From: a virus
Taxonomy: Duplodnaviria > Heunggongvirae > Uroviricota > Caudoviricetes
Virus record (IMG/VR): IMGVR_UViG_2703718846_000005
Coordinates: 1 to 17,376 of that record
Reading direction: 5' to 3' (one strand)
Length of the DNA stretch: 17,376 nucleotides
In this document: piece by piece, positions 1 to 17,376 of the stretch
Layout: every line of letters begins with the position of its first letter
Position numbering within the stretch: the first letter of the stretch is position 1
The notes under the pieces: generated by a model
The model's database searches: none
What the model was told of the DNA's origin: nothing
The model's input: only the letters and a program-made list of their open reading frames with translations
Program-made: the position numbers and the translations under genes

Positions 1-132
1 ATGGCGATGATACGTTGCGTGGATGCGATTTACATGCTGAATGGCTGGCAGCGGTCGGCGGGTGCTAAGGCAGAACTGGCACTGGCGGAGAAGCTGGGGC
101 ATGCGGTTATTTTACAGAAGGCGATGCAGTGA
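1..132 (+). CDS. 3' end of an upstream phage gene (5'-partial; identity not resolved)
   Basis: Open frame from window edge to TGA at 130-132 (..GWQRSAGAKAELALAEKLGHAVILQKAMQ*). Confidence 0.35.
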   Translation: MAMIRCVDAIYMLNGWQRSAGAKAELALAEKLGHAVILQKAMQ

Positions 133-134
133 AT

Positions 135-311
135 ATGTTCTGGATAATCAAAATTGAGCTGTTTGTTATTGTTTTCCTGATCAGTGCATTTCTGGCAGCG
201 GCTTTTATTATCTGGGAAAATCCTTTTCGACATATCAGTCCACTGTTTGCAATCAGGGTGTTAATAGCATCGGTTGTAGTGGTGTGGTTAATTTGTTTTG
301 CATTATTTTAA
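135..311 (+). CDS. Small hydrophobic (membrane) protein, hypothetical
   Basis: ORF track 129..311; ATG at 135; strongly hydrophobic product; AT-rich. Confidence 0.3.
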   Translation: MFWIIKIELFVIVFLISAFLAAAFIIWENPFRHISPLFAIRVLIASVVVVWLICFALF

Positions 312-324
312 TGGAGTTAATGTT

Positions 325-639
325 ATGAACGAAATCAAAGAAATGCCGGTAGAACGTGATGCATATGGATGCTGGACACATCCTGAATATGAAAAATTTT
401 GTGATGGCCGGGAATATATTTCGACGGAAGAATTTAATGCATGGATGAAGGTGAATAATCTTCAGTGGACCATTCGCGCAATGGATGAAGATGATTTTAA
501 TCCGGATGCGGATGGTCCTGATATTGCCGCATGGGAGCCGGAACGACCAGAGGGTGAGGGGTGGTTTATTGGCTCCATTCATGACACGGAAGACGGTCCG
601 GTTTGTATCTGGTTGCGGAATTGTGAGGTGACACAGTGA
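325..639 (+). CDS. Hypothetical phage early-region protein
   Basis: ATG 325 preceded by GGAG (313-316); acidic product; stop overlaps next start (GTGA). Confidence 0.55.
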   Translation: MNEIKEMPVERDAYGCWTHPEYEKFCDGREYISTEEFNAWMKVNNLQWTIRAMDEDDFNPDADGPDIAAWEPERPEGEGWFIGSIHDTEDGPVCIWLRNCEVTQ

Positions 640-965
640 ATCAGATTAACTGTCAGGCACTGCGTGAGGCGGCAGAAGCAATAAAAACAGCAGCCACACC
701 ACAAAAATTGCTGGCATTTCGTATGAAAGCCACACCGCAGGTTGTGCTGGCTTTGCTGGATGAGCTGGAAGCCAGAGACAAACGCATTGCAGAGATGGAA
801 GTAAGGGATGTGCAGTTACCGACTTGCTATGAGCCTCGATATGGTCATCCGATAAATACTGATGAGCGATGCGTCATGATACCCAGTGAGCATGGACGCT
901 GGCTTTATCTGGCTGACTTAGAGCATGCACTACGAGTGGCAGGTATTCGCATCAAAGGAGAGTGA
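636..965 (+). CDS. Hypothetical phage protein (possibly Ead/Ea22-like)
   Basis: GTG start overlapping upstream stop (GTGA, translational coupling); N-terminal ..QALREAAEA.. helical region reminiscent of Ead/Ea22-like prophage proteins (from memory, unverified). Confidence 0.5.
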   Translation: MNQINCQALREAAEAIKTAATPQKLLAFRMKATPQVVLALLDELEARDKRIAEMEVRDVQLPTCYEPRYGHPINTDERCVMIPSEHGRWLYLADLEHALRVAGIRIKGE

Positions 966-966
966 C

Positions 967-1323
967 GTGGAAATAACCCCAGAAGATGAGTCCGGGAATA
1001 TTGTTTTATTTCCGGTAAAAGAGGATGACCCACGTAATCAGGTGAATTTTCTTTATGAGCCATCGGAAAGACCATACTGCCATCACGCTTCTGTCCGGGT
1101 TGACGAAAAAGAGCGTCAGGTCCGCTGTAAAATCTGCGGTGCAGTTGTGGAGCTGTTTGACTGGATGCTCTCAGTGGCGAAAAGAGAAACCAGACTGGCA
1201 GATGATGTAAAACAATTGCGTCAGGAGGAACGGGAAAGACGTAAAAATATAGAAAAGCTAATTCAGATTGAGCGTAATGTGAAAGCGCGGATACGCAGGG
1301 CGACAAAACTTAGCCCAGAATAA
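967..1323 (+). CDS. Hypothetical phage protein with Cys-x17-C-x2-C motif and basic coiled-coil C-terminus
   Basis: GTG 967 one nt after upstream TGA, AAAGGAG at 954-960; in frame with ORF 925..1323. Confidence 0.5.
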   Translation: MEITPEDESGNIVLFPVKEDDPRNQVNFLYEPSERPYCHHASVRVDEKERQVRCKICGAVVELFDWMLSVAKRETRLADDVKQLRQEERERRKNIEKLIQIERNVKARIRRATKLSPE

Positions 1324-1413
1324 TCAACATTATTATTGAAAATATAATCCTTAACCGGAGGGATTTCTGCACCCTCAGAACATCAGGAGGCCGCCCGAAA
1401 TGGCGGTAAGACA

Positions 1414-1587
1414 ATGCGAAAAATCAAAATAGTTATCGAAACGAGGATTGTTGGTAACGTGCGTGAAGATGTATTTGAAGTGGATGATGACGCGACTCCT
1501 GAGGAAATAGAAAACGAGGCAATTGATGTTTTCTTTAATCACTGCAATTACTCAATTTACGAAATAAAAGACGAAGTGGAAGAGTAA
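1414..1587 (+). CDS. Small acidic hypothetical protein (57 aa)
   Basis: ATG 1414 to TAA 1585-1587 (MRKIKIVIETRIVGNVREDVFEVDDD...); below the 60-aa cutoff of the ORF track; stop abuts next start (TAAATG). Confidence 0.4.
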   Translation: MRKIKIVIETRIVGNVREDVFEVDDDATPEEIENEAIDVFFNHCNYSIYEIKDEVEE

Positions 1588-1950
1588 ATGGCGACTTTGA
1601 CCAAAGAAGAACGGTTTACCAAAGAGCAGTTAATAGCCCACGCAGAGGAGGCTATTGAATCACAGAGACTGTGCATACCAGGCACAATCGACCATGACCT
1701 CATTCGCGCATATAAGATGGATATTGCTGTTCTGGAAATTGCACTGCAATCGCTGGCAGCAGCGCCAGTTGGTAAATTTTATGAATACAAACCAGTGGGA
1801 TATCAGCGTCTGGTCGATGAGTTAACCATGCTGGTAAAGCAGTTAATCTGGCAACTGAGGAAAGCGAAGCCAGACTGCAAATTACCGGATAAGGCGATGA
1901 GTTATCTGGAGCGGAACGGACTGATAAGCGTGGAGGATATTTTACGATGA
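1588..1950 (+). CDS. Hypothetical phage protein (120 aa)
   Basis: ORF track; ATG directly after upstream stop; stop overlaps next ATG (ATGA). Confidence 0.55.
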
Positions 1951-2030
1951 CCTGGCCTGAAGCATTCACAACGGCAGGAATTGCAATGGCGGTGGCGCTG
2001 GTGGTGTATTCGATTTGCCGCTGGGGATAA
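1947..2030 (+). CDS. Small membrane peptide (27 aa), hypothetical
   Basis: ATGA overlap with upstream stop; hydrophobic [27 protein letters not shown]; followed by strong terminator. Confidence 0.3.
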
Positions 2031-2036
2031 CAAACA

Positions 2037-2066
2037 AAAACCCCGGATTGACGGTCCGGGGTTTTT
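2037..2066 (+). terminator. Rho-independent terminator closing the early small-ORF operon
   Basis: CCCCGGA-ttgacgg-TCCGGGG hairpin followed by TTTTT. Confidence 0.8.
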
Positions 2067-2289
2067 GAAGGAAACAAACAGAAACAACAATTGCCGTTAT
2101 CTGTTGCCACCAATGACAAGTAAACGTATCTCAGGCGAGCGCATTGCGCCGTTCTGACGCGGATACATTAGCCTGGGCAGAAGGTTCTGGAAATAAAAAA
2201 TAGCGTTTTCTTATCGGTGTCGGTAAGATTGTTGCGGGTGCTTGAGGCTGTCTGCCTCGGGCATGCCACTGTAAGGCAGACAGAGAAAA

Positions 2290-2356
2290 GCCCCAGTTAA
2301 CATTACGCGTCCTGCAAGACGCTTAACATTAATCTGAGGCTCAATCTATGAACGGC
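2290..2356 (-). ncRNA. sok: Sok-like antisense RNA (type I antitoxin) with its promoter
   Basis: Minus-strand promoter TTGCCT-17 nt-TAACCT (plus coords 2391-2386 and 2368-2363), matching my recollection of the R1 sok promoter TTGCGC-17-TATCCT; transcript would be antisense to the mok start region. Ends are approximate. Confidence 0.45.
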
Positions 2357-2560
2357 AAATCTAGGTTAGCCTCTTACGTGCCGAAAGGCAAGGAGAAGCA
2401 GGCTATGAAGCAGCAAAAGGCGATGTTAATCGCCCTGATCGTCATCTGTTTAACCGTCATTGTGACGGCACTGGTAACGAGGAAAGACCTCTGCGAGGTA
2501 CGAATCCGAACCGGCCAGACGGAGGTCGCTGTCTTCACAGCTTACGAACCTGAGGAGTAA
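2348..2560 (+). CDS. mok-like upstream reading frame, in frame with hok (70 codons)
   Basis: ATG 2348 opens a frame that contains the hok ATG 2405 and shares its stop; position matches mok of hok/sok loci. Confidence 0.4.
   Translation: MNGKSRLASYVPKGKEKQAMKQQKAMLIALIVICLTVIVTALVTRKDLCEVRIRTGQTEVAVFTAYEPEE
2405..2560 (+). CDS. hok: Hok/Gef-family type I toxin (51 aa)
   Basis: MKQQKAMLIALIVICLTVIVTALVTRKDLCEVRIRTGQTEVAVFTAYEPEE: single TM helix plus conserved C-terminal Hok motif; I recognise it as HokD/RelF-like; GGAGAAG SD upstream. Confidence 0.85.
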   Translation: MKQQKAMLIALIVICLTVIVTALVTRKDLCEVRIRTGQTEVAVFTAYEPEE

Positions 2561-2628
2561 GAGACCTGGCGGGGGAGAAATCCCTCGCCACCTCTGATGT
2601 GTCAGGCATCCTCAACGCACCCGCACTT

Positions 2629-2650
2629 AACCCGCTTCGGCGGGTTTTTC
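2629..2650 (+). terminator. Terminator at hok mRNA 3' end (copy 1 of 20-bp repeat)
   Basis: AACCCGC-ttcg-GCGGGTT hairpin followed by TTTT. Confidence 0.7.
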
Positions 2651-2717
2651 GTCGCATTATGAGGTTGTAATTTTAGCTACCATTAGACTATCCTAAGGAT
2701 CTCAAACAGATCTATTT

Positions 2718-2735
2718 TGCATCAAATTTGGTGCA
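2718..2735 (+). promoter_or_regulatory. Near-perfect 18-bp palindrome, candidate operator upstream of the Doc module
   Basis: TGCATCAAATTTGGTGCA (16/18 symmetric) about 40 bp upstream of ATG 2776; adjacent AGATCT-centred imperfect repeat. Confidence 0.4.
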
Positions 2736-2775
2736 TGGCTTTGCCAATAATCGGAAAACAAAAGGACTCATTAGT

Positions 2776-2955
2776 ATGAGCTGCCCACTCAAAAAACACA
2801 CGCGGTTGAGTATTCCGCCTCGCGATAAAAGCGTTGTGGCAGTCCCTCGCCCAGCGATTGATGAAAACTGCGCACATCGTGAACAAGTGAAAAATGCTTT
2901 TGATTTCGGTTTTTCTCGTTATGAGAAAGCCATGGAAGAACTTTCAAAAGTGTAA
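2776..2955 (+). CDS. Small protein (59 aa), candidate antitoxin partner of Doc
   Basis: ATG 2776 with AAGGA 10 nt upstream; stop 18 nt before doc start; position typical of an antitoxin, but sequence is not a recognisable Phd/YefM. Confidence 0.4.
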   Translation: MSCPLKKHTRLSIPPRDKSVVAVPRPAIDENCAHREQVKNAFDFGFSRYEKAMEELSKV

Positions 2956-2973
2956 TGATGGGTATTGTGCTCT

Positions 2974-3459
2974 ATGGCTGAGATTGTTGAAGGAGTGCAT
3001 TACCTTACGGTTGATGATCTTGTTGAAATCAATCGTTCCCTAATTGAATTACAGACGCCAGATGAGCCCGTTGGTGTTCTGAGTCCAGATAACTTAAGTT
3101 CTTCTCAGGCCCGTCCCAGCATGGTTCGATGGTATGAACAGACTAATGACATGTTTGTACTGGCATCGGTATTGATTGAAAGTCTGATTCAGAATCATCC
3201 GTTTGCTAATGCGAACAAACGAACAGCTATGATGGCTGGTTACGTCTTCTTGTTGTTGAATGGCTATGAGTTAACAGCACCAGGCGATGAAATCGTGGAA
3301 ATGGCAGAGGGACTGGCCTGCAAAACCTATACTCGAGAAGATCTCGAGAACTGGTTGTGTTATTGGTCTCGCGCGTATGACAGCCGGGAATTATGTAAAA
3401 CAGGCGCAACTATTGTTTTGTATGAAACTATCAAGCTTAAAATAGAACAGCAAAACTAA
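2974..3459 (+). CDS. doc: Doc (death-on-curing) family toxin, Fic fold
   Basis: Contains HPFANANKRTA, matching the Doc motif HxFx(D/N)(A/G)NKR; size about 160 aa; start could be TTG 2965 or ATG 2974. Confidence 0.8.
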   Translation: MAEIVEGVHYLTVDDLVEINRSLIELQTPDEPVGVLSPDNLSSSQARPSMVRWYEQTNDMFVLASVLIESLIQNHPFANANKRTAMMAGYVFLLLNGYELTAPGDEIVEMAEGLACKTYTREDLENWLCYWSRAYDSRELCKTGATIVLYETIKLKIEQQN

Positions 3460-3475
3460 AGGCGCTTCCAATGAA

Positions 3476-3500
3476 AACCCGCTTCGGCGGGTTTTGTTTT
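3476..3500 (+). terminator. Terminator after doc (copy 2 of 20-bp repeat)
   Basis: AAACCCGC-ttcg-GCGGGTTTTGTTTTTT; the 20 nt AACCCGCTTCGGCGGGTTTT are identical to 2629-2648. Confidence 0.7.
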
Positions 3501-3574
3501 TTCCGGGCATTCTGGTTTACAATCTGCACGCCAGCCTGAACAACTGGCACCTGCTGCGCCAGCAGAGAAAACAG

Positions 3575-3853
3575 ATGGCGCACAAGACCAAATTACACAA
3601 TTCTGATAATTCAGCCGCTTTTGCCAGCAGGCACGGGCGGCGTTCTCATGTATTCAAATCTGACTGGTACCAGCATCCCCCATGCACTGAAGAACAGGCC
3701 GAATGGCTGATTCAGTGTTACGGCAGGCGCGGATACGAGGTTAAGAAAGCCCTCAGCCTCGATTATCGTCACTGGATAATCTCTGTCAGGCTCCCTTATT
3801 CCGAACGCCCACCACACCCGTCCCGCACATTCCAGCAACGGATCTGGAGGTAA
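3575..3853 (+). CDS. Hypothetical protein (92 aa)
   Basis: ATG 3575 inside ORF 3494..3853; TACAAT -10-like element at 3515-3520; stop TAA overlaps the GGAGG SD of the next gene. Confidence 0.4.
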   Translation: MAHKTKLHNSDNSAAFASRHGRRSHVFKSDWYQHPPCTEEQAEWLIQCYGRRGYEVKKALSLDYRHWIISVRLPYSERPPHPSRTFQQRIWR

Positions 3854-3854
3854 C

Positions 3855-4904
3855 GTGCGGGTATTACTTCGACCTGTTCCGGTACCGGAACTCGGGCTGG
3901 TGGTCCTTAAGCCTGGTCGTGAATCCATGCAGGTATTTCATAACCCTCGAGTGCTGGTGGAGCCGGAACCGAAAAGCATGCGCGGTCTGCCGTCCGGAGT
4001 TGTTCCTGCTGTTCGCCAGCCGCTGGCGGAAGATAAATCATTACTGCCATTTTTCAGCGATGAGCGGGTGATTCGTGCTGCTGGCGGCGCTGGCGCACTG
4101 TCTGACTGGCTGTTGCGTCATGTCAAATCCTGCCAGTGGCCTCATGGTGACTATCATCACAGTGAAACCGTCATACATCGTTACGGTACCGGCGCAATGG
4201 TGTTGTGCTGGCACTGTGACAACCAGCTGCGTGACCAGACATCCGAATCACTCGGGCAGCTTGCTCAACAAAATCTGACAGCCTGGATGATTGACGTCAT
4301 ACGCCATGCAATGAATGGCACACAGGAGCGGGAATTATCGCTGGCTGAACTGTACTGCTGGGCTGCTGTAAATGATGTAGTGGATGCCATGACCGAAAAT
4401 ATGGCGCGTCGAATCCTGAAGCTTCCGGGTGAAAAAATCCACTCAGTATACCGCGAGAGTAACATCATACCGGGAGAACAGACAGCCACCAGCATACTGA
4501 AGCAGCGCACAAAAAATTTTGCGCCGTTGCCTCACGCCCACCAGCAACAGAACCCACCACAGGAAAAGACGGTTGTAAGTATCACAGTTGATCCGGAGTC
4601 ACCGGAATCATTCATGAAGCGGCCTAAACGTCGCCGCTGGGTGAATGAGAAATACACGCGCTGGGTAAAGACACAGCCGTGTACGTGTTGTGGTAAGCCA
4701 GCAGACGATCCCCATCACCTGATTGGTCACGGTCAGGGCGGAATGGGGACAAAAGCCCACGATATTTTTACGTTGCCGCTGTGTCGGGAACATCACAACG
4801 AACTTCATGCAGATCCGCAGGCGTTCGAAGAAAAGCATGGTTCTCAGGTTGATTTAATTTTTCGTTTTCTTGATCACGCCTTTGCAACTGGCGTACTCGG
4901 ATAA
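3855..4904 (+). CDS. DUF968-like prophage protein with C-terminal HNH-type Cys/His motif
   Basis: GTG 3855 with GGAGG SD; C-terminus CTCCGKPADDPHHLIGHGQGGMGTKAHDIFTLPLCREHHNELH; resembles Qin YdfU-type proteins (from memory). Confidence 0.65.
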   Translation: MRVLLRPVPVPELGLVVLKPGRESMQVFHNPRVLVEPEPKSMRGLPSGVVPAVRQPLAEDKSLLPFFSDERVIRAAGGAGALSDWLLRHVKSCQWPHGDYHHSETVIHRYGTGAMVLCWHCDNQLRDQTSESLGQLAQQNLTAWMIDVIRHAMNGTQERELSLAELYCWAAVNDVVDAMTENMARRILKLPGEKIHSVYRESNIIPGEQTATSILKQRTKNFAPLPHAHQQQNPPQEKTVVSITVDPESPESFMKRPKRRRWVNEKYTRWVKTQPCTCCGKPADDPHHLIGHGQGGMGTKAHDIFTLPLCREHHNELHADPQAFEEKHGSQVDLIFRFLDHAFATGVLG

Positions 4905-4916
4905 AAGAGGTTACTG

Positions 4917-5291
4917 ATGGGGATAGAATTTGTTTTGCCTTACCCGCCGACGGTAAACACCTACTGGCGACGCCGTGGCAGCACATATTTTATATCGGAA
5001 GCCGGTAAGCGTTATCGCCGTGATGTGGCACTTATAGTTCGCCAGCAGAGGCTGAAATTAAACCTGTCCGGAAGGCTGGCGATAACGGTTATTGCCGAGC
5101 CTCCGGATAAGCGCCGTCGTGATCTGGACAATATCCTGAAAGCGCCACTGGATGCACTGACACATGCGGGGTTGCTCATAGACGATGAGCAGTTTGATGA
5201 AATCAATATTGTGCGCGGTCAGCTCGTTCCTGGTGGGCGGCTGGGCGTGAAGATTTACGAAATAATGCATGACGGGCAGGTCCAAAAATGA
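4917..5291 (+). CDS. rusA: Holliday junction resolvase RusA
   Basis: ..RRRDLDNILKAPLDALTHAGLLIDDEQ.. matches the RusA catalytic region; AAGAGG SD; stop overlaps Q start (ATGA). Confidence 0.9.
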   Translation: MGIEFVLPYPPTVNTYWRRRGSTYFISEAGKRYRRDVALIVRQQRLKLNLSGRLAITVIAEPPDKRRRDLDNILKAPLDALTHAGLLIDDEQFDEINIVRGQLVPGGRLGVKIYEIMHDGQVQK

Positions 5292-6109
5292 AACTGGAAG
5301 ATTTACCGAAATACTATTCCCCAAAATCGCCAGGCCTGACTGATGTATCCGCCTCGACGTCAAAAGATGCACTGAGTATCACTGATGTGATGGCTGCGCA
5401 GGGGATGACACAGAACCGGGCTGAGATGGGATTTTCTGCGTTCCTGGGGAAAATGGGTATTAGTATGAATGACAGGGTGCGGGCAACAGAATTACTGACA
5501 GATTATGCATTAAGTCAGTGCGATCGTGTGGCGGCGTTAAGGAAACTTCCGGCAGAAATAAAACCGGCAGTGATGCGTATTATGGCTTCGTATGCTTTTG
5601 AGGATTATGCCCGCAGCGCAGCGAGTAAAAAGCAGTGCCCTTGTTGCCATGGGGAAAAATTTATTGAAAGCGAAGTTTTTACAAACAAGGTTCAGTATCC
5701 GGATGGTAAGCCGCCAGTATGGGCAAAGTGTACAAAAGGCGTGTATCCGTCTTACTGGGAAGAATGGAAAAAAATCCGGGAGGTGGTGAAAGTTTCCTGT
5801 CCTGAATGTAAAGGGAAGGGGGAGATCTCCACTGCCTGTAAAGACTGCCGTGGGCGTGGTGTTGCCATTCATCGTGAAGAGTCAGAAAAACGGGGTATGC
5901 CTGTTATCAGGGGCTGCCGGCGTTGTGGCGGTCGTGGCTATGAAAGACTGCCATCAACGGAGGCATTTAATGCCATATGCAAAGTGACGAGTGCTATCAC
6001 GCTTGATACATGGAAAAAATCAGTGAAACGCTTTTACGATACGTTGGTGGTTCGGTTTGACATTGAAGAGGCATGGGCGGAGCGGCAGTTAAAGATGGTA
6101 ACGCGATAG
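5288..6109 (+). CDS. Late-gene antiterminator Q (Phage_antitermQ-like) with four CxxCxGxG zinc-finger repeats
   Basis: N-terminus MKLEDLPKYYSPKSP typical of Q antiterminators of E. coli prophages; sits immediately upstream of the late promoter. Confidence 0.8.
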   Translation: MKLEDLPKYYSPKSPGLTDVSASTSKDALSITDVMAAQGMTQNRAEMGFSAFLGKMGISMNDRVRATELLTDYALSQCDRVAALRKLPAEIKPAVMRIMASYAFEDYARSAASKKQCPCCHGEKFIESEVFTNKVQYPDGKPPVWAKCTKGVYPSYWEEWKKIREVVKVSCPECKGKGEISTACKDCRGRGVAIHREESEKRGMPVIRGCRRCGGRGYERLPSTEAFNAICKVTSAITLDTWKKSVKRFYDTLVVRFDIEEAWAERQLKMVTR

Positions 6110-6112
6110 TGT

Positions 6113-6143
6113 TGTTGATTTTTCCCGAATCTGTGGTAAATTC
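6113..6143 (+). promoter_or_regulatory. pR'-like late promoter (extended -10), presumed qut region
   Basis: TTGATT (6116-6121), 16-nt spacer, TGgTAAATT extended -10 (6134-6143), immediately after Q stop; small hairpin CGCCC-taacgat-GGGCG at 6144-6160 just downstream. Confidence 0.4.
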
Positions 6144-6190
6144 GCCCTAACGATGGGCGTTTTGTGCCTGACGTTAGAAGAATTTTTACA

Positions 6191-6217
6191 ACCCGCCACC
6201 GAGCGGGTTTTTTATTG
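6191..6217 (+). terminator. tR'-like terminator of short late leader RNA
   Basis: CCCGC-caccgag-CGGG followed by TTTTTT, about 50 nt downstream of the predicted late start. Confidence 0.65.
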
Positions 6218-6336
6218 CCCGAAAAACGGTACAGAACATTAAACGCGCTGGTGGTTACGAATACCGGTCTTTCAGCTTGTATTTTTGTAAATCGATATAT
6301 ACTTATCTTGTGACCAGTAATGTCAGGGCAATTGAT

Positions 6337-7080
6337 ATGAATGAAGCCTGTTCTGTTGTTTTTGTTCATTCCCCGTTTGTTGTGCTCTTTGAAGGAAAAG
6401 AGCTCTCTCTTGAAAGTGGTAGTGCACTTCTTGTCAGGGGGGGAGCTGGATCGTTATTGCCCTTTTCGGAATGTTTTCGGCGAATAAGTCTCAGTGAATC
6501 GACAATTAGCCGTTACCTGTTGTGTGGAGACGAAAAACAGGATGTAGTTTTAGTCCGGCAAATACCACGATATCTTTGCGTGAGTTTTCCCAAGGCAGAA
6601 TTGATGGGCATCCTGATTGATTATCTTTGTGAGGAAAAGATTCATACGGACAATTTAGCGGAAATGCTTTCCTTTTCGTGTCTGGCGTTTTTCTCATCAG
6701 AGAAAATGTTTTCGTCGTTTCTGACCGCGTGTATTAGCAATATTAGTGACAGGCTTAGTGCATTGTTTCGTACGGACATTGCAGCAAACTGGACTCTGAG
6801 AGATGTGTCTTCGCGGTTATGTATCAGTGAAAGTTTGTTAAAAAAAAGACTGAAAGAAGAAGGCACCTGTTTCAGTGAGTTGTTGCTTACAGAGAGAATG
6901 AGAATGGCAGCAATGCTGTTGAATCAATCTCGTTGCGCCATCAACAGAATCGCTGCTCAGTGCGGCTATAATTTTACATCTTATTTTATCAGCGTATTCA
7001 GGAGTTATTTTGGTGTTACACCGGCAGGTTACAGGATGGCTGCATTCAATGAGATGAGTTTAAGTGTTACTCAAGAATAA
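6337..7080 (+). CDS. AraC/XylS-family transcriptional regulator (AppY/EnvY/GadX-like), AT-rich moron
   Basis: C-terminal dual HTH (..LLKKRLKEEGTCFSELLLTERMRMAAMLL..IAAQCGYNFTSYFISVFRSYFGVTPAGYR); N-terminus MNEACSVVFV resembles AppY-type regulators; visibly AT-richer than flanks. Confidence 0.85.
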   Translation: MNEACSVVFVHSPFVVLFEGKELSLESGSALLVRGGAGSLLPFSECFRRISLSESTISRYLLCGDEKQDVVLVRQIPRYLCVSFPKAELMGILIDYLCEEKIHTDNLAEMLSFSCLAFFSSEKMFSSFLTACISNISDRLSALFRTDIAANWTLRDVSSRLCISESLLKKRLKEEGTCFSELLLTERMRMAAMLLNQSRCAINRIAAQCGYNFTSYFISVFRSYFGVTPAGYRMAAFNEMSLSVTQE

Positions 7081-7102
7081 TTGAATTTTGCACTCATTGA
7101 AA

Positions 7103-7131
7103 AAGGCTCGCTCCGGCGGGCCTTTTTCATA
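7103..7131 (+). terminator. Terminator after the AraC-family gene
   Basis: GGCTCGC-tccg-GCGGGCC hairpin (one mismatch) followed by TTTTTC. Confidence 0.5.
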
Positions 7132-7264
7132 TCTGCGCCACGCCCGGCGCACATCAAAAAACCACAGAGCCTTTCAGGGGGGAGCTTACGGGATGGTCAG
7201 TGTGACTTTCTCTGTGGGCTGCTCATCCCGGGGCGAGGCTCACCCACTAAAAGGAAAAGTCACG

Positions 7265-7690
7265 ATGTTTGGTATTTTCAAAAAGAAAACCCGTAAGGCT
7301 ATTACTGAAGTGAAGAAAATGGAGAACCGCGACGCAGTGGAGGCGACCGTCTGGGGCGCGTATTCCATTGCATACGCTGACGACACCTGTGACGCGAAAG
7401 AAATTGCGGTACTGGAGAAAACCATTGCAGCACTTCCTGCCTTTGCGCCGTTCTCCGGTGAGATTGCACAAATGAGTGCAAATATCCGCGCCCGTTATGA
7501 AGCATCACCGCGTTCTGCCAATGCTGAAGCTCTTCGTCAGCTGGCTGATGTTGCAGGTACTGATGATGCAGTTAATGTGCTGTGCCTGTGTCTCGATATT
7601 GCTGACCAGGACGGTATTGGTCCGGATGAAGAAGCACAGCTCAAGAAAATTGCGCAGGCGCTGCAGTTGCCACTGGAGCAGTATCTGTGA
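7265..7690 (+). CDS. TerB-like (tellurite-resistance TerB family) protein
   Basis: ATG 7265 with AAAGGA SD; two TerB-like helical repeats (AYSIAYADDTCDAKEIAVLEKTI and VLCLCLDIADQDGIGPDEEAQLKKIAQAL) resembling TerB as I remember it. Confidence 0.65.
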   Translation: MFGIFKKKTRKAITEVKKMENRDAVEATVWGAYSIAYADDTCDAKEIAVLEKTIAALPAFAPFSGEIAQMSANIRARYEASPRSANAEALRQLADVAGTDDAVNVLCLCLDIADQDGIGPDEEAQLKKIAQALQLPLEQYL

Positions 7691-7845
7691 AAACTGCGCG
7701 CCTTGTGCTGGCTGCCATCCTGTTGTTTCTGGTAGTGGCGGTTGATTTCACCGGGCGCCTGATGTCGGTGCTGGCTGATGGCGTGCTGGTGGTGATGGTA
7801 GTGGTCGTGCTCCGGCCTTTATTCCGGAACAAAAACAACAGCTGA
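7687..7845 (+). CDS. Small membrane peptide (52 aa) translationally coupled to the TerB-like gene
   Basis: GTG overlaps TerB-like stop (GTGA); product VKTARLVLAAILLFLVVAVDFTGRLMSVLADGVLVVMVVVVLRPLFRNKNNS is predicted TM; terminator follows. Confidence 0.4.
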   Translation: MKTARLVLAAILLFLVVAVDFTGRLMSVLADGVLVVMVVVVLRPLFRNKNNS

Positions 7846-7852
7846 TTATTTG

Positions 7853-7882
7853 AGCGGGCATTGAAAGCCCGCTGCATTTTTA
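7853..7882 (+). terminator. Terminator of the TerB-like unit, overlapping the stop of the convergent minus-strand gene
   Basis: AGCGGGC-attgaa-GCCCGCT hairpin followed by TTTTTA; the minus-strand side lacks a U-run. Confidence 0.55.
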
Positions 7883-8560
7883 TTGCTGCTGTTCCTTAAT
7901 GCGTTCCGGTAGCACAAATGCCACTTCAAGGAACAGGCGGAGAAACGCCACAAACTCTTTTGCCTGTTCACTACTGGCCTCGAGTTCGTGCACAGCCTCA
8001 TTGCCTTCCATACGGATTCGGTGAGCCCAGTTTCTCATTGATTCCGTCAGTATGCCGTCCTGCCGTGCCAGTTCAATGCGTGACAGCAGATTGCCTTTTT
8101 CGTACCCCAGGGCACGGAGGGCAACCTCGAGGACGCTACGGCAGCCAACAATGATACGCGGGGCGGTTCTGCCGGACCGAACATCCTCCTGCAACTCAGT
8201 GAAGACTGCGCGAATTTTTTCGGGATAGTGGGGGGAGTCATCGGGCAGCCTGAGTTCAGGATAGATTTTGATGCTTCCCTCAAGTGGAGCATTCAGCACC
8301 CAGGCTTTGTTGTTGATGGCTTTTTTCATGTCCACCAGTTCACTGACTGAACATTCGAATGCGATCATTAATGGGTTGTTACATTCTGTGCAAAAGTCTG
8401 TTGAGTATGCTTTTGCTGATGTTATTTCAGAGGTGCGCGGCTGTTGCACGTAAAGCTTGTTTTCTGTAGCCGGGCGCCTGCTGTGGTACTGGGTGACCTC
8501 ATTCAGAGAAATATGAACCTGATGAAGGCAGTACGGGCATCTAATTTTCAGGGAGTACAT
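7880..8560 (-). CDS. Zn-ribbon plus DUF4145-domain protein (226 aa), candidate defence/abortive-infection-type protein
   Basis: N-terminal CPYC...CTEC zinc ribbon; C-terminus ..RSVLEVALRALG..LLSRIELARQDGILTESMRNWAHRIRMEGNEAVHE..AKEFVAFLRLFLEVAF matches the DUF4145 pattern from memory; start at minus ATG 8560-8558 with AAGAGG SD. Confidence 0.65.
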   Translation of the reverse strand: MYSLKIRCPYCLHQVHISLNEVTQYHSRRPATENKLYVQQPRTSEITSAKAYSTDFCTECNNPLMIAFECSVSELVDMKKAINNKAWVLNAPLEGSIKIYPELRLPDDSPHYPEKIRAVFTELQEDVRSGRTAPRIIVGCRSVLEVALRALGYEKGNLLSRIELARQDGILTESMRNWAHRIRMEGNEAVHELEASSEQAKEFVAFLRLFLEVAFVLPERIKEQQQ

Positions 8561-8767
8561 ATGACCTCTTCGACAGAAGTGATAACTGAATTTGAAAATT
8601 GCATAGCAGATTCTGCCATTGATTCTGTAGCAGCGATAGAACGAAGGTTTGCTGCTGCTCAGACCCGGTATGGTCATGATGCAGCCGTCAAGGGGCTGGC
8701 AATGGCGTTTGTTATTGCGGAGAACCGCCGTCGCTTTATTGAAGCGCAAATGACACTAAAGCAATAA
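8561..8767 (+). CDS. Hypothetical small helical protein (68 aa)
   Basis: ATG 8561 with GGGAG SD 5 nt upstream; tandem terminators follow; start codon abuts the divergent DUF4145 gene start (CATATG). Confidence 0.45.
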   Translation: MTSSTEVITEFENCIADSAIDSVAAIERRFAAAQTRYGHDAAVKGLAMAFVIAENRRRFIEAQMTLKQ

Positions 8768-8780
8768 ATAGCACCACACA

Positions 8781-8841
8781 AAAGGCATCTGTGGGTGCCT
8801 TTGACTGGGTGTTTTTTTACGGGCCGACAGAGGCCCTTTTT
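8781..8841 (+). terminator. Tandem rho-independent terminators
   Basis: AAAGGCA-8 nt loop-TGCCTTT then U-run; GGGCC-gacaga-GGCCC then TTTTTT. Confidence 0.6.
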
Positions 8842-8860
8842 TATTTACAGGAGAAAAAGT

Positions 8861-9250
8861 ATGTCTGAACCCTTATCCGGTTCCGGCACGGCTGCGGCGC
8901 TCGGCGGGGCGACGGTATTCGGGCTGTTTACCGGAACGGATTTCGGGATTGTGTTTGGTGCATTCGCAGGGGCGCTGTTTGTGGCCACGATACCACAGAA
9001 GATTTCTGTCTGGCGTGTGGCAGCGCATTTTCTGGTGTCGTTCATTGTTGGCGTGCTGGGGGCGGATGTGATGGCGTCTTACCTGGTTGAAAAACTGAAT
9101 CTCCACAGCACATCTCTCGACGCACTTTGCGCGGTACTGGTATCGGTGGTGTCGGTGAAGATTCTCTCATTCATCCACCAGCAGGATATCGCATCGCTGG
9201 TATCCGGGCTGTTCTCCCGTCTGCGGGGTGGAGGCGGTAATGTTAAGTAA
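8861..9250 (+). CDS. Putative holin (3 predicted TM segments, 129 aa)
   Basis: AGGAG SD before ATG 8861; three hydrophobic segments, charged C-terminus; first gene of lysis cluster. Confidence 0.6.
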   Translation: MSEPLSGSGTAAALGGATVFGLFTGTDFGIVFGAFAGALFVATIPQKISVWRVAAHFLVSFIVGVLGADVMASYLVEKLNLHSTSLDALCAVLVSVVSVKILSFIHQQDIASLVSGLFSRLRGGGGNVK

Positions 9251-9515
9251 CCTTCCCGGATTACTGAATGTGGTGTTAAGCACGGTTATCGTGCTGACGC
9301 TCTTTTTTTATCGTCGCCGTGATTCCAGACATAAACCGCTGATGTCATGGCTGGCCTGGCTACTGATGCTGCTTTATGCCTTTGCACCACTCAGCTATCT
9401 GTGCGGTCGCCCGTTAGCGGCGAACTGGCTGGCGGTGGGGCTTAATCTGCTGTTCTGCGTGCTGGTGATACGTGCACGCGGGAACGTTTCAAAAATCCTT
9501 TCATTCCGGAGGTGA
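9240..9515 (+). CDS. Second holin/antiholin-like membrane protein (91 aa)
   Basis: ATG 9240 overlaps holin stop; three hydrophobic segments; basic C-terminus. Confidence 0.5.
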   Translation: MLSNLPGLLNVVLSTVIVLTLFFYRRRDSRHKPLMSWLAWLLMLLYAFAPLSYLCGRPLAANWLAVGLNLLFCVLVIRARGNVSKILSFRR

Positions 9516-9517
9516 GC

Positions 9518-9895
9518 ATGTCGGGTAAATTCAGATTCAGTCGTCGCAGTGAAAAAAATCTGGAGGGCGTCAAACCACAGCTGGTTGCTGTTGTTCGCCG
9601 TGCGCTGGAGCTGACGGAGGTTGATTTCGGTATTACGGAAGGTCTGCGCAGTAAGTATCGCCAGAAACAGCTGGTTGCAGAAGGTAAGAGCCAGACCATG
9701 AACAGCCGCCACCTGACCGGTGATGCTGTGGATGTTGTGGCTTATGTTGGCAGCCAGGTGTCATGGGACTGGCCTCTGTACGAGAAAATCGCACAGGCAT
9801 TTAAGCAAGCTGCCGCAGAGCTTGGAACTGCCATCGAATGGGGCGGTGACTGGCGGACGCTTAAAGACGGCCCACATTTTCAATTGAAGCGATAG
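9518..9895 (+). CDS. Endolysin, peptidase M15 family (L-alanyl-D-glutamate peptidase / VanY-like)
   Basis: SRHLTGDAVDV (SxHxxGxAxD zinc-binding motif) and ..WGGDWRTLKDGPHFQL; GGAGG SD before ATG 9518. Confidence 0.8.
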   Translation: MSGKFRFSRRSEKNLEGVKPQLVAVVRRALELTEVDFGITEGLRSKYRQKQLVAEGKSQTMNSRHLTGDAVDVVAYVGSQVSWDWPLYEKIAQAFKQAAAELGTAIEWGGDWRTLKDGPHFQLKR

Positions 9896-9912
9896 CTTGC
9901 AAAACATACAGG

Positions 9913-9934
9913 GCCGCCATGAGCGGCTTTTTTA
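9913..9934 (+). terminator. Terminator after endolysin
   Basis: GCCGC-catga-GCGGC followed by TTTTTT. Confidence 0.65.
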
Positions 9935-9965
9935 TTGCTCAAAAAACGAAAGAACGGAGGTACGT

Positions 9966-10247
9966 ATGTACGCACTGAAAAAAATCACGGTAACTAAAGA
10001 TGGTCGTCAGGTTGAAGAAGTGCATGTTCTGGGGAATATGTATCGTCTGGAGTTCTATCCGCGTGACACTCATCTTGCAGCAAAAATTGAGTATTGCCTG
10101 GGCGGGGATATTCCATGTATTCCGGTAGAAAAAGAGGATGAGGCTTACATTACCACGCTGACCGGAGACACGGTGCGTTGTATCTGTCGCGGTGACAGTA
10201 AAGCCAGGAATGAAATAGCCAGATGCCGCACCCAAGGCAGTAAATAA
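9966..10247 (+). CDS. Hypothetical Cys-containing protein (93 aa)
   Basis: ACGGAGG SD before ATG 9966; bounded by terminators on both sides. Confidence 0.5.
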   Translation: MYALKKITVTKDGRQVEEVHVLGNMYRLEFYPRDTHLAAKIEYCLGGDIPCIPVEKEDEAYITTLTGDTVRCICRGDSKARNEIARCRTQGSK

Positions 10248-10254
10248 AAAACAA

Positions 10255-10287
10255 AACCCCGGCTGCTGGAACAGTCCGGGGTTTTTA
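10255..10287 (+). terminator. Strong rho-independent terminator
   Basis: CCCCGG-13 nt loop-CCGGGG followed by TTTTT. Confidence 0.85.
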
Positions 10288-10377
10288 GTTTTCACGTCAA
10301 AGAGGAAATTGTGAGTAGTGAGTACGGAGAAAATCCTCGTGGGAAAGTATAAAAGATTCTTTTTGAGGTTGTCCATT

Positions 10378-10491
10378 ATGAAAGGTATTGAAGTGGAAAC
10401 TCCCGCGAGCCTTGATTTGACAAGGGCTGCGGCCTTTGCAATTCGCCTTGTGGCGGTCGCTGTTCTGATTTGGGCTGTGCGTTGGTGGTGA
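10378..10491 (+). CDS. Small TM peptide (37 aa)
   Basis: GAGG SD before ATG 10378; MKGIEVETPASLDLTRAAAFAIRLVAVAVLIWAVRWW; stop 1 nt before the lipoprotein start. Confidence 0.35.
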   Translation: MKGIEVETPASLDLTRAAAFAIRLVAVAVLIWAVRWW

Positions 10492-10492
10492 C

Positions 10493-10675
10493 ATGAGCCG
10501 AAAACACTGGACACACAGAATGCCTCGAACGGCGGTGAAATGGGCGCTGATAGCGATACTGGTGCCTTTTTTCCTGGTGGGATGTGTCAGCCTGGATAAA
10601 GCGCGCCAGCTTTTTGATACAGCTTCTCAGGTCTGTGAAATTGTCGACGGTGTTCGGCAGTGTCTGCAGAACTGA
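10493..10675 (+). CDS. Small predicted lipoprotein (60 aa)
   Basis: Basic n-region, hydrophobic core ALIAILVPFFLVG, lipobox LVGC; short mature part with 3 Cys; not proline-rich like lambda Rz1. Confidence 0.5.
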   Translation: MSRKHWTHRMPRTAVKWALIAILVPFFLVGCVSLDKARQLFDTASQVCEIVDGVRQCLQN

Positions 10676-10846
10676 TCGCCTGTAAGAGCAGAATATTTTG
10701 CTGAAAAATGAAGGATGCGCCGGCGTCCGGAAAGCATGAAATTCTGTGTTTGTGGCTACTCAATTAAATAAATTCTTTCTGTCGCCGCGAATACTCAAAT
10801 GTTGATCAGCGCCCGGTGCGGCGACGAGCTTCGATATCAGGAGACG

Positions 10847-11146
10847 ATGATGGAAAAAACAGAAAACAAACCGATTGTAATTGGTGCTGATGCTGCTCCG
10901 TTTAAGTTTGAGTTGTCTCAACTGGTGGAGATGCGCATCAGTGATGAATGGGGGGAGGTTAAAGCCCGCGCGCAGTATGCGGATGGCGAAAACCAGTACT
11001 TGATCCACTACAAAGCAGCTGATGGTCGCGCCACGACGGAGTGGTTTGGTGAGTCAATGCTGGAAGCAACGGAAGATGATCGCCATCCTGGCTGTCCGGT
11101 ATTTGCTGGTATGAAATTGCCGGAAGGTGCGGTTGTTACAGAGTAA
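10847..11146 (+). CDS. Hypothetical acidic protein (about 99 aa)
   Basis: AGGAGA SD (10838-10844) before ATG 10847/10850; in ORF 10799..11146. Confidence 0.5.
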   Translation: MMEKTENKPIVIGADAAPFKFELSQLVEMRISDEWGEVKARAQYADGENQYLIHYKAADGRATTEWFGESMLEATEDDRHPGCPVFAGMKLPEGAVVTE

Positions 11147-11351
11147 CAGACATTACAGCAGCCCTTCAGCGAGGGGCTGCGATAATGTGAGAAATAAAAA
11201 ACCGGTCACAGGGAACAGCCACACAGAACCGGCCGGCGAAGACCGCCAATATCACCCGAGCATCGGTACAACATACTTATGACAATAGACGGTATTGATG
11301 TAAATGCAATGTTATGCATCGACGAAAATAAAAAACCGGCAGGGGAAATCC

Positions 11352-11492
11352 ATGGAAGATTTGCCGGTGGCGAAAGAGGGCCATGTTTTTAACCTTAGTC
11401 GCAGAGTTACGGAGTGCAACTACGAATGCTGCCGGTATATGGCTGAATGGCGTTTCAATGATGTGCATCATGTTATGCGCAAACGAAAGTGA
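11352..11492 (+). CDS. Small Cys-rich ORF (46 aa), doubtful
   Basis: Internal ATG of ORF 11304..11492; weak SD. Confidence 0.2.
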   Translation: MEDLPVAKEGHVFNLSRRVTECNYECCRYMAEWRFNDVHHVMRKRK

Positions 11493-11504
11493 TAATCGCT
11501 CCCG

Positions 11505-11690
11505 TTTTCACGGGTCCTTTCCGGGAGTTGAAACACCGGGGGTCGTAGGACGCGCAAAAACGCGCTATTTATGAAAATTTTCAGGGAACCATGTCCGGTT
11601 TCACTACTGGTTAACTATATGAAAAATATAAAAACAAGCTTTTTGTGAACCGGACATGTACAAAAAACGAACATGCAAACCGGACATGAG
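11505..11690 (+). promoter_or_regulatory. cos site region (cosQ-like, cosN region, cosB with IHF-like A/T tract and three R-like repeats)
   Basis: TTTTCACGGGTCCTTTCCGG and GCTATTTATGAAAATTTTC match the lambda right/left end sequences as I remember them; 10-bp motif ACCGGACATG occurs at 11649-11658 and 11679-11688 and inverted at 11590-11599; lies directly upstream of the Nu1-like gene. Confidence 0.6.
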
Positions 11691-11732
11691 CGGTTTTCTG
11701 ATTGTGAGGTGAGAGTTTTTGCGAGGTGAGTC

Positions 11733-12242
11733 GTGGCTACGCAGACTGAAGTTGCCAGGCATTTGAGTCTGACCGATCGCCAGCTTCGCAGATTGCAGAA
11801 ATTGCCGGGTGCCCCGGTCTCGAATAAACGGGGGCATCATGACTTGGATGCCTGGCGTGATTTTTACATATCGTATCTGAGGAGAAGTAAAAATGATGTG
11901 TCTGATGGTGATAGCGAAGAAGACTATGAAGAAAAATTACTTATCGCCAGATGGAAATTGACTGAAGAACAGGCAATAGCACAGCAATTAAAAAATCAGG
12001 TAACTGAAGGCAGACTTATTGATTCAGGGTTCTGCGTTTTCGCCCTCAGCAAACTGGCGATGGCATTGTCCAGTACGCTTGATTCCATTCCTTTATCCAT
12101 GCAGCGACAGTTCCCGGATTTAACCCCGCGTCATATTGATTATCTGAAAACCCTTATCGCAAAGGGAGCGAATCAGTGTGCGCGGGCAGGGGATAAATTG
12201 CCGGAGTTACTCGATGAATATATCCGAACAACAGTTGAATAA
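11733..12242 (+). CDS. Terminase small subunit (lambda Nu1-like)
   Basis: GTG start with GAGGTGAG SD; ..FCVFALSKLAMALSSTLDSIPLSMQRQFPDLTPRHIDYLK.. closely parallels lambda gpNu1; overlaps the large-subunit start as in lambda. Confidence 0.9.
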   Translation: MATQTEVARHLSLTDRQLRRLQKLPGAPVSNKRGHHDLDAWRDFYISYLRRSKNDVSDGDSEEDYEEKLLIARWKLTEEQAIAQQLKNQVTEGRLIDSGFCVFALSKLAMALSSTLDSIPLSMQRQFPDLTPRHIDYLKTLIAKGANQCARAGDKLPELLDEYIRTTVE

Positions 12243-16793: not shown

Positions 16794-16800
16794 GTGTTTT

Positions 16801-17376
16801 ATGGAAATAAAACGCATCGAAAATGCGCGTTATCTTGAAAATGGCGCGATTGACTGTGGGGTGTTGTTTGATGGCATGGATGAACCGGTTCCGTATACGG
16901 CAACTGCCACGGATACAGCAGAGACAGGGCAGCGAGTCTGGCAGGAACTGCAAAGCGGCAAGTGGGGAGAAATAACGCCGTTCACCGTCACGTCAGAGAT
17001 GCTGGAAGCAGCAAAAGCAGCCAAACGCCGGGAAATTGAAGCATGGCGTACAGAGCAGGAGGCGCAGCCATTCATTTTTGAATGGAACGGTCATAGCTGG
17101 AACGGGGGACCGGATTCGATGGCCCGTCTTTATCCGGTGGCGATGGCGTCGAAATCCGACACAGCACGGGACGTCATGACGTGGGGTGATGCGGAAAATC
17201 AGCAGGTAAAGTTGTCAATGCAACAACTGGATGAGTTGCTTACTGCAATGGTTCAGGCGCAGGTTGATCGCAATGATGAAATTTATCGCCGCCAGCGGGA
17301 AATGAAAGATGCGTTAAATGCACTGGATGGTTTGAACTCGATCAGAAAACTAGTTATTAGCCCAGAAAATTTTTGA
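16801..17376 (+). CDS. Tail fibre assembly protein (Tfa-like chaperone)
   Basis: ATG 16801 just after stf stop; size and position typical of Tfa; ends at window edge with TGA. Confidence 0.7.
   Translation: MEIKRIENARYLENGAIDCGVLFDGMDEPVPYTATATDTAETGQRVWQELQSGKWGEITPFTVTSEMLEAAKAAKRREIEAWRTEQEAQPFIFEWNGHSWNGGPDSMARLYPVAMASKSDTARDVMTWGDAENQQVKLSMQQLDELLTAMVQAQVDRNDEIYRRQREMKDALNALDGLNSIRKLVISPENF

Follow-up and report, generated by a model that had tools for sequence, protein, structure and literature searches.

The 17,376-nt stretch analyzed here, referred to as the window (IMG/VR virus record IMGVR_UViG_2703718846_000005, positions 1 to 17,376), belongs to a lambdoid prophage of Escherichia coli, spans its early-right to late region, and contains an 847-bp two-gene cassette at 2649-3495 on the forward strand. 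The cassette consists of a leader with a promoter-like region, a gene for a protein of 59 amino acids (aa) that is a putative antitoxin (2776-2955), a gene for a 161-aa Doc-family toxin (2974-3459), and an intrinsic terminator of its own, and it is missing from colinear prophages that retain both of its flanks. Going rightward, Pfam matches place the genes in the order hok/sok, cassette, a 92-aa hypothetical gene, DUF968, RusA, and antiterminator Q. The closest complete genomes are 99.4% identical over 2300-3900 and are annotated with the same gene order, which in RefSeq reads hokD, WP_001277774 (59 aa), WP_000818168, hypothetical protein, DUF968, RusA, and Q.

The second gene of the cassette starts with an ATG at 2974 on the forward strand, and its stop codon ends at 3459. 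An earlier reading of the same DNA made without database searches (the sequence-only reading) had described the product as a 162-aa Doc protein with the signature HPFANANKR, and had proposed hidden Markov model (HMM) searches of this protein and of its upstream neighbor. The identification was right and the signature is intact at residues 75-83, but the protein has 161 residues, the figure of 162 having included the stop codon. It matches TIGR01550 (DOC_P1) with 128.5 bits (cut-off 38.65), Pfam PF02661 (Fic/Doc) with 46.6 bits (cut-off 24), and PHROG 577 ("Doc-like toxin") with E = 1.8e-51. Its place in the Doc branch of the Fic/Doc fold is secure, and it is a toxin of a known kind, already annotated in RefSeq as a "type II toxin-antitoxin system death-on-curing family toxin" (WP_000818168).

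The closest solved structure is the Doc protein of Enterococcus faecalis (9vzc, E = 4.7e-13); P1 Doc is distant (E = 5.6e-5), and the alignment to the solved Docs spans residues 6-116. H75, F77, N79, N81, and K82 do not vary among 48 Doc homologs, and R83 is conserved in at least 90% of them. The subfamily is tight, with lengths of about 155-166 residues and 63-79% identity outside E. coli, and it is found across Enterobacterales in genera that include Salmonella, Dickeya, Serratia, Providencia, Morganella, Pantoea, and Xenorhabdus. Its members carry 30-35 extra residues past the end of the TIGR01550 model that have no counterpart in P1 Doc, in which W131, D136, L140, and C141 are invariant and are followed by a hypervariable tail. 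This C-terminal extension (residues 131-161) might be part of the interface with the partner protein. An AlphaFold2 monomer model, made from a shallow alignment in which all rows were at least 63% identical, is mostly helical but, with a mean predicted local distance difference test score (pLDDT) of 51.7, was too uncertain to be of use. The protein is acidic (isoelectric point, pI, 4.5), and the PADLOC defense models returned weak Fic-domain echoes only.

The first gene (2776-2955, forward strand) lies in the same frame as doc, from which it is separated by TAA-TGA plus 15 nt, a gap of 18 nt in all. It is preceded by a Shine-Dalgarno sequence, AAGGA, at 2762-2766. RefSeq lists its product as a "hypothetical protein" (WP_001277774), and no match to it was found in Pfam, NCBIfam, PADLOC, or the PDB, where a profile search with the partner family gave chance-level matches only (E >= 0.38). 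The sole library match is to PHROG 2208, of "unknown function" (E = 6.9e-41). A word-indexed search with the protein recovered 15 clusters, all from E. coli, Salmonella, or metagenomes, and an exhaustive profile search of 1.84 billion representative proteins put the family at 38 representatives of 38-121 residues, apart from one outlier of 2917 residues with repeated partial matches. None of 43 family members has a Pfam match. The family consensus is M..A..K..RL.IP.RDK..VA.P.PA....H..QV.NAF..GF.RYEKA.E.LSKV. At all 16 aligned loci, 12 of them from species genomes other than E. coli, the protein is exactly 59 aa long; its C-terminal 23 residues (QVKNAF..F.RYEKAM..L.KV) are almost invariant, the middle is variable, and the N-terminal motif K..RL.IP.RDK is conserved, basic, and proline-rich. 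The open reading frame (ORF) is a real, conserved gene.

AlphaFold2 predicts coil over residues 1-33, which hold five prolines, and a single helix over residues 34-57, with pLDDT above 90 for the last 20 residues. The predicted helix has 24 residues, is amphipathic, and has an invariant glycine near its midpoint. The protein as a whole is basic (pI 9.1; 9.4 for the N-terminal half). The sequence-only reading had noted that the upstream ORF does not resemble Phd/YefM, and this was borne out, with no antitoxin family matched in Pfam or NCBIfam (including PF02604) and an hhalign probability below 1% against Phd. The dissimilarity in fact extends to every described antitoxin family that could be compared. 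Homology of the C-terminal helix to Phd, suggested by a visual alignment to Phd residues 52-73, was rejected, as hhalign gave 0.9% against Phd and 0.66% against a 12-sequence Phd profile, with the best local match in another register. A folded N-terminal dimerization and DNA-binding domain of the Phd type (about 50 residues) was looked for in the partner and not found, residues 1-33 being predicted as coil, and the protein appears from its model to have no classical DNA-binding domain. Two further candidate features were discarded. The inhibitory-helix motif of Fic proteins, (S/T)xxxE(G/N), does not occur in the window partner and occurs in 2 of 43 family members, at unaligned sites. Residues 16-24 were considered as a mimic of the loop around Thr382 of elongation factor Tu, and the candidate phospho-acceptor position proved not to be conserved in the family.

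The two genes are strictly coupled. For each of three Doc homologs looked up in other genera, a 59-aa ORF 59-76% identical to the window partner lies directly upstream, the settings being a Salmonella prophage between tail genes, the topA-sodC interval of a Providencia chromosome, and a Dickeya prophage. When the partner was used to search species-representative genomes, 12 loci came up (Kluyvera, Serratia, Citrobacter, Hafnia, Rosenbergiella, Morganella, Yersinia pestis, Izhakiella, and four Providencia), and a Doc homolog is immediately downstream in 12 of 12. The same search of IMG/VR, in which 80 loci were kept, found Doc directly downstream in 80 of 80. Across the 16 aligned loci the genes are on the same strand with a gap of 7-18 nt, and the pairwise identities of partner and Doc correlate (r = 0.82, from 120 non-independent pairs). 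The layout, typical of type II modules, is that of a small upstream gene with a good Shine-Dalgarno sequence followed by a toxin gene with no obvious one, and with no terminator between them. The flanks of one lineage are unrelated to those of the next: in Y. pestis they include fliF and an HD-domain gene, in Serratia an IS3-family transposase, in Hafnia and Kluyvera tail genes, and at one Providencia locus a DUF4041/T5orf172 gene. It follows that the two genes travel and are kept together. Coupling of the partner to Doc is thus obligate across unrelated settings. Such strict coupling is the behavior expected of a cognate antitoxin and, as a signal in sequence, is the strongest evidence on function.

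Copies of the pair are also present on chromosomes outside of phages, in Y. pestis NCTC5923 (L019 3001-3667) between fliF and the HD-domain gene, and in Providencia heimbachae (L010 2318-2989) between topA and the Cu/Zn superoxide dismutase gene. Among phage GenBank records, a related pair was found in one only, the unannotated Salmonella phage SW-37, with 72% DNA identity.

The cassette is bounded by an exact 20-bp direct repeat, AACCCGCTTCGGCGGGTTTT, present in the window only at 2629-2648 and 3476-3495 on the forward strand, as the sequence-only reading had reported. No third match exists in the window even with 3 mismatches allowed, and 200 shuffles put the chance expectation for the repeat at 0.01 matches. 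The same reading took both copies for terminator hairpins. For the right copy a terminator scan agreed, calling a stem at 3474-3495 followed by GTTTTTT; the left copy forms the same hairpin (CCCGC-TTCG-GCGGG), the intrinsic terminator of the hok mRNA, followed by TTTTT before CG, and it fell below the T-run rule of the scan. The left copy is the sole copy at an uninterrupted junction, that of locus L003, where hokD, a single hairpin, and the same downstream gene follow each other with nothing between, whereas L001, L002, and the window carry the cassette. Base by base, the L003 junction reads ...CACTTAACCCGCTTCGGCGGGTTTTTGTTTTTTCCTGGCATTCTGG....

The uninterrupted state is widespread. A junction probe made from the window with 2649-3495 deleted matches thousands of E. 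coli genomes; of a tighter, 191-nt probe, 2284 of 5426 genomes cover at least 80%, and most sampled rows do so in one uninterrupted piece, so that about 2,000 E. coli genomes have an uninterrupted, single-copy junction. The cassette itself is found in 125 of the 5426 complete E. coli genomes, always on the chromosome, and in 38 of these it has the flanks of the window on both sides. The sequence-only reading had asked whether related prophages lack the segment and retain one copy of the repeat; L003 and most of the sampled probe matches do, and the reading of this segment as a cassette, or moron, is supported. Its capture beside the hok terminator had been proposed together with a duplicated repeat, and here the cassette held up and the right repeat as a duplicated target did not. 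In E. coli O104:H4 C227-11, avian pathogenic E. coli (APEC) O1, O157:H7 F6321, and O121:H19 16-9255 the pair is likewise found behind hokD and its terminator, but with different genes downstream, and with the megablast match starting exactly at the start codon of the partner. The right-hand hairpin stays with doc at these differing loci (L005, L006, L025, L026), and at a Citrobacter locus (L015) the same hairpin core lies 3' of doc, while the 3 kb upstream contain neither hok nor a second copy. Because of this, the right copy is best seen as the cassette's own terminator rather than a target-site duplication, and we conclude that the shared hairpin is a joining point of modules.

The junction also receives other DNA. 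At two loci (L004 1730-2420 and L027 180-800) it instead holds a 130-aa ORF without a Pfam match whose product has a lipoprotein-type signal (MKKLVLVAGVMIATVMLGGC...); the hairpin to its left is degenerate (CCCGCTTCGGCG-TTTTTT) and the one to its right is intact. Strain FUJ80154 (L028 195-520) shows a fourth state, in which about 330 bp of AT-rich non-coding filler follows one terminator copy. The 20-bp direct repeat could mediate gain or loss of the cassette, and either may have taken place in a given lineage: flanks of the empty sites are about 95% identical to the window, and the comparison turned up no two prophages that differ by the cassette alone. This locus is a clean example of the exchange of lambdoid cargo at a terminator hairpin, with the junction after hok being empty or holding the Doc cassette, a lipoprotein-like gene, or AT-rich filler.

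Upstream of the small gene, a candidate sigma-70 promoter was identified by eye at 2665-2694 on the forward strand (TTGTAA - 18 nt - TATCCT). The O104:H4, APEC O1, O157:H7, and O121:H19 copies represent a sister E. coli variant, in which the hexamers are kept as TTGTGA and TATGCT. The two E. coli leader versions can be aligned for about 70 nt past the hok terminator, sharing TTGT(A/G)A - 18 nt - TAT(C/G)CT, then diverge completely over a stretch that holds an 18-bp near-palindrome in the window, and reconverge near the ribosome-binding site. Related loci of other genera have TGGTATTA(G/A), an extended -10-like box, at the equivalent place.

The best explanation for these observations, to which we assign a probability of about 0.7, is that 2649-3495 is a moron carrying a Doc toxin and its 59-aa cognate antitoxin. 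As such it would be a self-contained accessory cassette in the early-right (nin) region of the prophage, directly after the hok/sok terminator, with its own promoter-like region and intrinsic terminator, and would encode a two-gene module resembling type II toxin-antitoxin systems. By homology to P1 Doc, the enzyme would phosphorylate elongation factor Tu and so stop translation. The 59-aa protein, which is predicted to be disordered for the most part and for which an antitoxin function is probable, would neutralize Doc by direct binding through its C-terminal helix, in the style of the Phd C-terminal segment without detectable homology to it. Binding of this kind is proposed because of precedents from Phd together with the predicted 24-residue amphipathic helix of the partner. 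The C-terminal 22 residues of Phd fold as two short helices on Doc and by themselves bind it with picomolar affinity and inhibit it (PMC9207808). Transferred to an unrelated scaffold, a Phd-C-like element neutralizes a Doc, linear neutralizing elements swap between antitoxin scaffolds, and single-domain antitoxins consisting solely of a neutralizing element exist (PMC10440598). The conserved N-terminal motif may touch the acidic toxin at a second site, mark the protein for degradation, or bind nucleic acid. The module as a whole may serve prophage retention or defense against other phages.

Several observations weigh against this explanation. The partner has no similarity to known antitoxins that is detectable with Pfam, NCBIfam, the PDB, or hhalign against Phd. 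Positions F42, F46, Y49, M53, and L56 of its predicted helix, with three residues to the C-terminus, can be overlaid on Phd F56, F/M60, L/H63, N/L67, and L70, with three to the end, but any amphipathic helix could show such an overlay on the Phd hot spots, and it has no statistical support. Since the partner has no evident DNA-binding fold, the autoregulation usual for such modules is left unexplained. A basic partner with an acidic toxin is also the reverse of the charge pattern of many classical pairs, and a consensus promoter scan called no promoter in the cassette leader.

Some of the same observations could be read as those of another kind of protein pair or of another history. The small protein may serve the Doc enzyme as an accessory factor, for instance as a transcription factor, as a subunit for targeting or activation, or as a substrate, with the Doc homolog not inhibiting growth or being controlled in another way, for example by its C-terminal extension. 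A lack of similarity to any antitoxin family fits this, as do the basic proline-rich motif K..RL.IP.RDK, which Phd has no counterpart to, and the extra 30-35 residues of the Doc subfamily with the invariant W131, D136, L140, and C141 that P1 Doc does not have; Fic/Doc enzymes are also known to have non-toxin roles and varied chemistry (PMC10440598). We consider it quite unlikely, as obligate adjacency, the upstream position and small size of the partner, tight spacing, and joint horizontal movement are hallmarks of toxin-antitoxin pairs, and this adjacency signature is taken as predictive of antitoxins in comparative genomic surveys (PMC2701414, PMC3141249). Full conservation of the Doc catalytic motif further suggests that the unrestrained enzyme would be harmful. 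As for the history of the locus, hok, its terminator, the partner, Doc, and the second terminator could form an old linked lambdoid block in which the hairpin is reused as a module boundary, the repeat copies then being no marks of insertion and the empty form arising by deletion or recombination between them. Precise deletion can act on direct repeats of 20 bp. The cassette follows hokD in every E. coli locus inspected, across three downstream gene sets (rem-like/DUF968; HTH plus RelE then NinB; DUF1367/DUF1364/DUF1133), and 42 of 48 E. coli-type viral contigs carry hok upstream, in line with an old block, although none of 32 divergent viral contigs does, an absence outside E. coli that points to the pair as the mobile unit. 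The Citrobacter locus with the hairpin core after Doc, and K-12 and many other genomes whose match to the junction probe stops where the terminator hairpin ends, placing mosaic boundaries exactly there, would also be explained. Such a history is possible, if somewhat unlikely, given that the uninterrupted form is about 20-fold more common than the occupied one and that at least two unrelated inserts occupy the same junction (L004/L027 and L028), which fits a point of repeated insertion or exchange better than repeated deletions.

Control of the cassette has to be weighed in the same way. The near-palindrome TGCATCAAATTTGGTGCA (2718-2735; 8 of 9 pairs) would be in the 5' leader if the candidate promoter is used, and the sequence-only reading had proposed it as an autoregulatory operator, so that the small protein, by itself or together with Doc, would repress the cassette promoter there. 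Its position between the candidate promoter and the start codon would suit this role, autoregulation is usual in type II modules, and lineage-specific upstream inverted repeats exist elsewhere, such as TAATGAAAG-N4-CTTTCATTA between the -35 and -10 boxes in Providencia and Morganella. The occurrence of the palindrome is near the chance level, with 2 such 18-nt palindromes of 8 of 9 pairs observed in the window against 1.8 expected, and with a probability in the shuffled 127-nt intergenic region of 0.02 for no loop, 0.10 for loops of 0-6, and about 0.2 for a permissive statistic. It is also absent from the sister E. coli variant (L005/L006), in which the replaced intergenic stretch includes its site. 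The partners encoded by the two versions share 88-90% identity and keep the N-terminal motif; with the site diverged all the same, the palindrome is unlikely to be a conserved operator. With no DNA-binding fold predicted for the partner, and with the palindrome lying about 17-34 nt downstream of the likely transcription start, where it could equally be a hairpin of the leader RNA, we regard repression through this site as very unlikely and did not retain the proposal. The window palindrome may instead form a hairpin in the leader RNA or have arisen by chance. Elsewhere in the window, the sole 18-nt near-palindrome with 8 of 9 pairs is at 3875-3892, just inside the DUF968 gene, and illustrates occurrence at the chance rate.

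The Providencia and Morganella copies (L010, L018, L021, L022) have, about 60-85 nt upstream of the small gene, a strong promoter-like TTGACT...CATTAT with a spacer filled by a 22-bp palindrome, both arms of which change together between species (TAATGTAAC...TTACATTA). Judged by its sequence, this palindrome is a better operator candidate than that of the window. Enrichment of inverted repeats upstream of the module at 14 loci gave P values from 0.04 to 0.99 each, with no general signal.

The closest known systems are Phd-Doc of bacteriophage P1 and its counterparts in Salmonella and E. faecalis (PDB 3k33, 3dd7, and 9vzc, the last described in PMC13034048), which have a toxin of the same family (TIGR01550) with the signature H.F.(D/N)(A/G)NKR. 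As in the cassette, the small gene comes first and the toxin gene follows, carriage is by temperate phage, and a helix of about 24 residues is predicted at the end of the partner, where Phd has its helical Doc-neutralizing segment. In contrast, the partner has a proline-rich basic tail in place of the N-terminal dimeric DNA-binding domain and does not match PF02604, and P1 Doc has 126 aa compared to the 161 aa of the cassette protein with its conserved C-terminal extension. Doc proteins with antitoxins other than Phd have been described, including the MazE/AbrB-Doc pair TasA-TasB (PMC1626090), PanA with a Phd-C element (PMC10440598), and unclassified "guilt-by-association" antitoxins (PMC3141249). 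These pairs illustrate partner exchange by Doc toxins and show that neutralization needs no more than a short linear helical element. They differ in that their partners hold a recognizable globular domain (AbrB, Panacea), whereas the cassette partner has none and matches none.

Other small inhibitors offer a likeness in form. PaaA2, from the paaR2-paaA2-parE2 locus of an O157:H7 prophage, is a single-domain antitoxin without a DNA-binding domain that partners a ParE toxin, with a separate gene for the regulator. Both PaaA2 and the VbhA/YhfG proteins have about 55-63 residues, are mostly disordered or helical, and are encoded upstream of their toxins on enterobacterial mobile elements, much like the 59-aa protein. 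Unlike PaaA2 with its separate regulator gene, the cassette pair has no third gene conserved with it. VbhA and YhfG inhibit class I Fic proteins by means of (S/T)xxxE(G/N) (PMC5033356, PMC2701414). That inhibitory motif is missing from the conserved positions of the partner family. As for the cassette as a whole, presence and absence in colinear prophages, an own terminator, a promoter-like leader, and other cargo at the same junction liken it to the lambdoid morons, which reportedly were described by Juhala, Hendrix, and colleagues in 2000 as independently transcribed genes with their own promoter and terminator between two genes of the conserved backbone. The cassette differs in that its terminator is identical over 20 bp to the preceding hok terminator, which gives rise to the direct repeat.

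A literature search found no paper naming the two RefSeq accessions, and the toxin-antitoxin surveys consulted do not include this partner family. As far as the literature shows, what is new is this partner family, which has no domain assignment and is tied strictly to a Doc subfamily of wide taxonomic range. In principle, partners of Doc other than Phd are known, and partner swapping among type II modules is well documented; for this reason current ideas are not overturned. Doc is nonetheless among the best-studied toxin folds, and essentially all mechanistic work on it has Phd as the partner. Should the 59-aa protein prove to be an antitoxin, it would rank with the smallest made of protein and would be an independent solution to the inhibition of Doc, and a compact template for Doc-inhibiting peptides, and many "hypothetical protein" annotations would become a named family. 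Carriers of the subfamily include prophages of E. coli O104:H4, O157:H7, O121:H19, and APEC O1, Salmonella prophages, and the chromosomes of Y. pestis and Providencia. A bolder idea, which we put forward tentatively and think unlikely, is that the partner founds a new class of minimal Doc antitoxin, disordered and without a DNA-binding domain, in which the C-terminal helix would block Doc and the N-terminal motif would have a separate job, as a protease degron or as a sensor of phage infection that releases Doc, the cassette then acting as a prophage abortive-infection module. If true, such a module would be spread over Enterobacterales, including prophages of enterohemorrhagic and enteroaggregative E. 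coli and the Y. pestis chromosome.

In E. coli O104:H4 C227-11, a second toxin-antitoxin pair, made up of a RelE/ParE family toxin gene and a gene for a helix-turn-helix (HTH) protein, lies in convergent orientation directly after the Doc cassette (L005 4735-5364). Together with hok/sok and the Doc cassette, this places three toxin systems within about 1.8 kb in that strain.

Outside of the cassette, the sok antisense-RNA region of the hok/sok type I toxin-antitoxin locus lies at 2236-2410 on the forward strand (Rfam RF01794, 110.4 bits against a gathering score of 59). It is followed by hokD (2405-2560, forward strand), which encodes a 51-aa membrane toxin of the Hok/Gef family (Pfam HOK_GEF, E = 3e-23) and is annotated as such in RefSeq at near-identical loci; a longer ORF from 2348 is the mok-type frame overlapping hokD. 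Within the cassette, no Rfam match reached its gathering score, and the sub-threshold matches (rsmX, RydC, Leu leader, and isrK) all fall on the two terminator hairpins. The match to isrK, an Hfq-binding RNA of Salmonella prophages, is at 2569-2650 (26.4 bits against a gathering score of 50), spans the hok 3' untranslated region and terminator, and is probably driven by the terminator hairpin. The downstream flank is formed by the 92-aa hypothetical gene (3575-3853, forward strand), placed by tblastn and by the annotation of L001-L004, which adjoins the hok terminator at uninterrupted junctions. The DUF968 gene (3855-4904) comes next, ahead of RusA and antiterminator Q. Beyond Q, the window encodes an AraC-family regulator at 6277-7080, a TerB-like protein at 7088-7690, and, from the other strand, a DUF4145 protein at 7880-8749; these genes look like additional accessory cargo in the late-promoter region.

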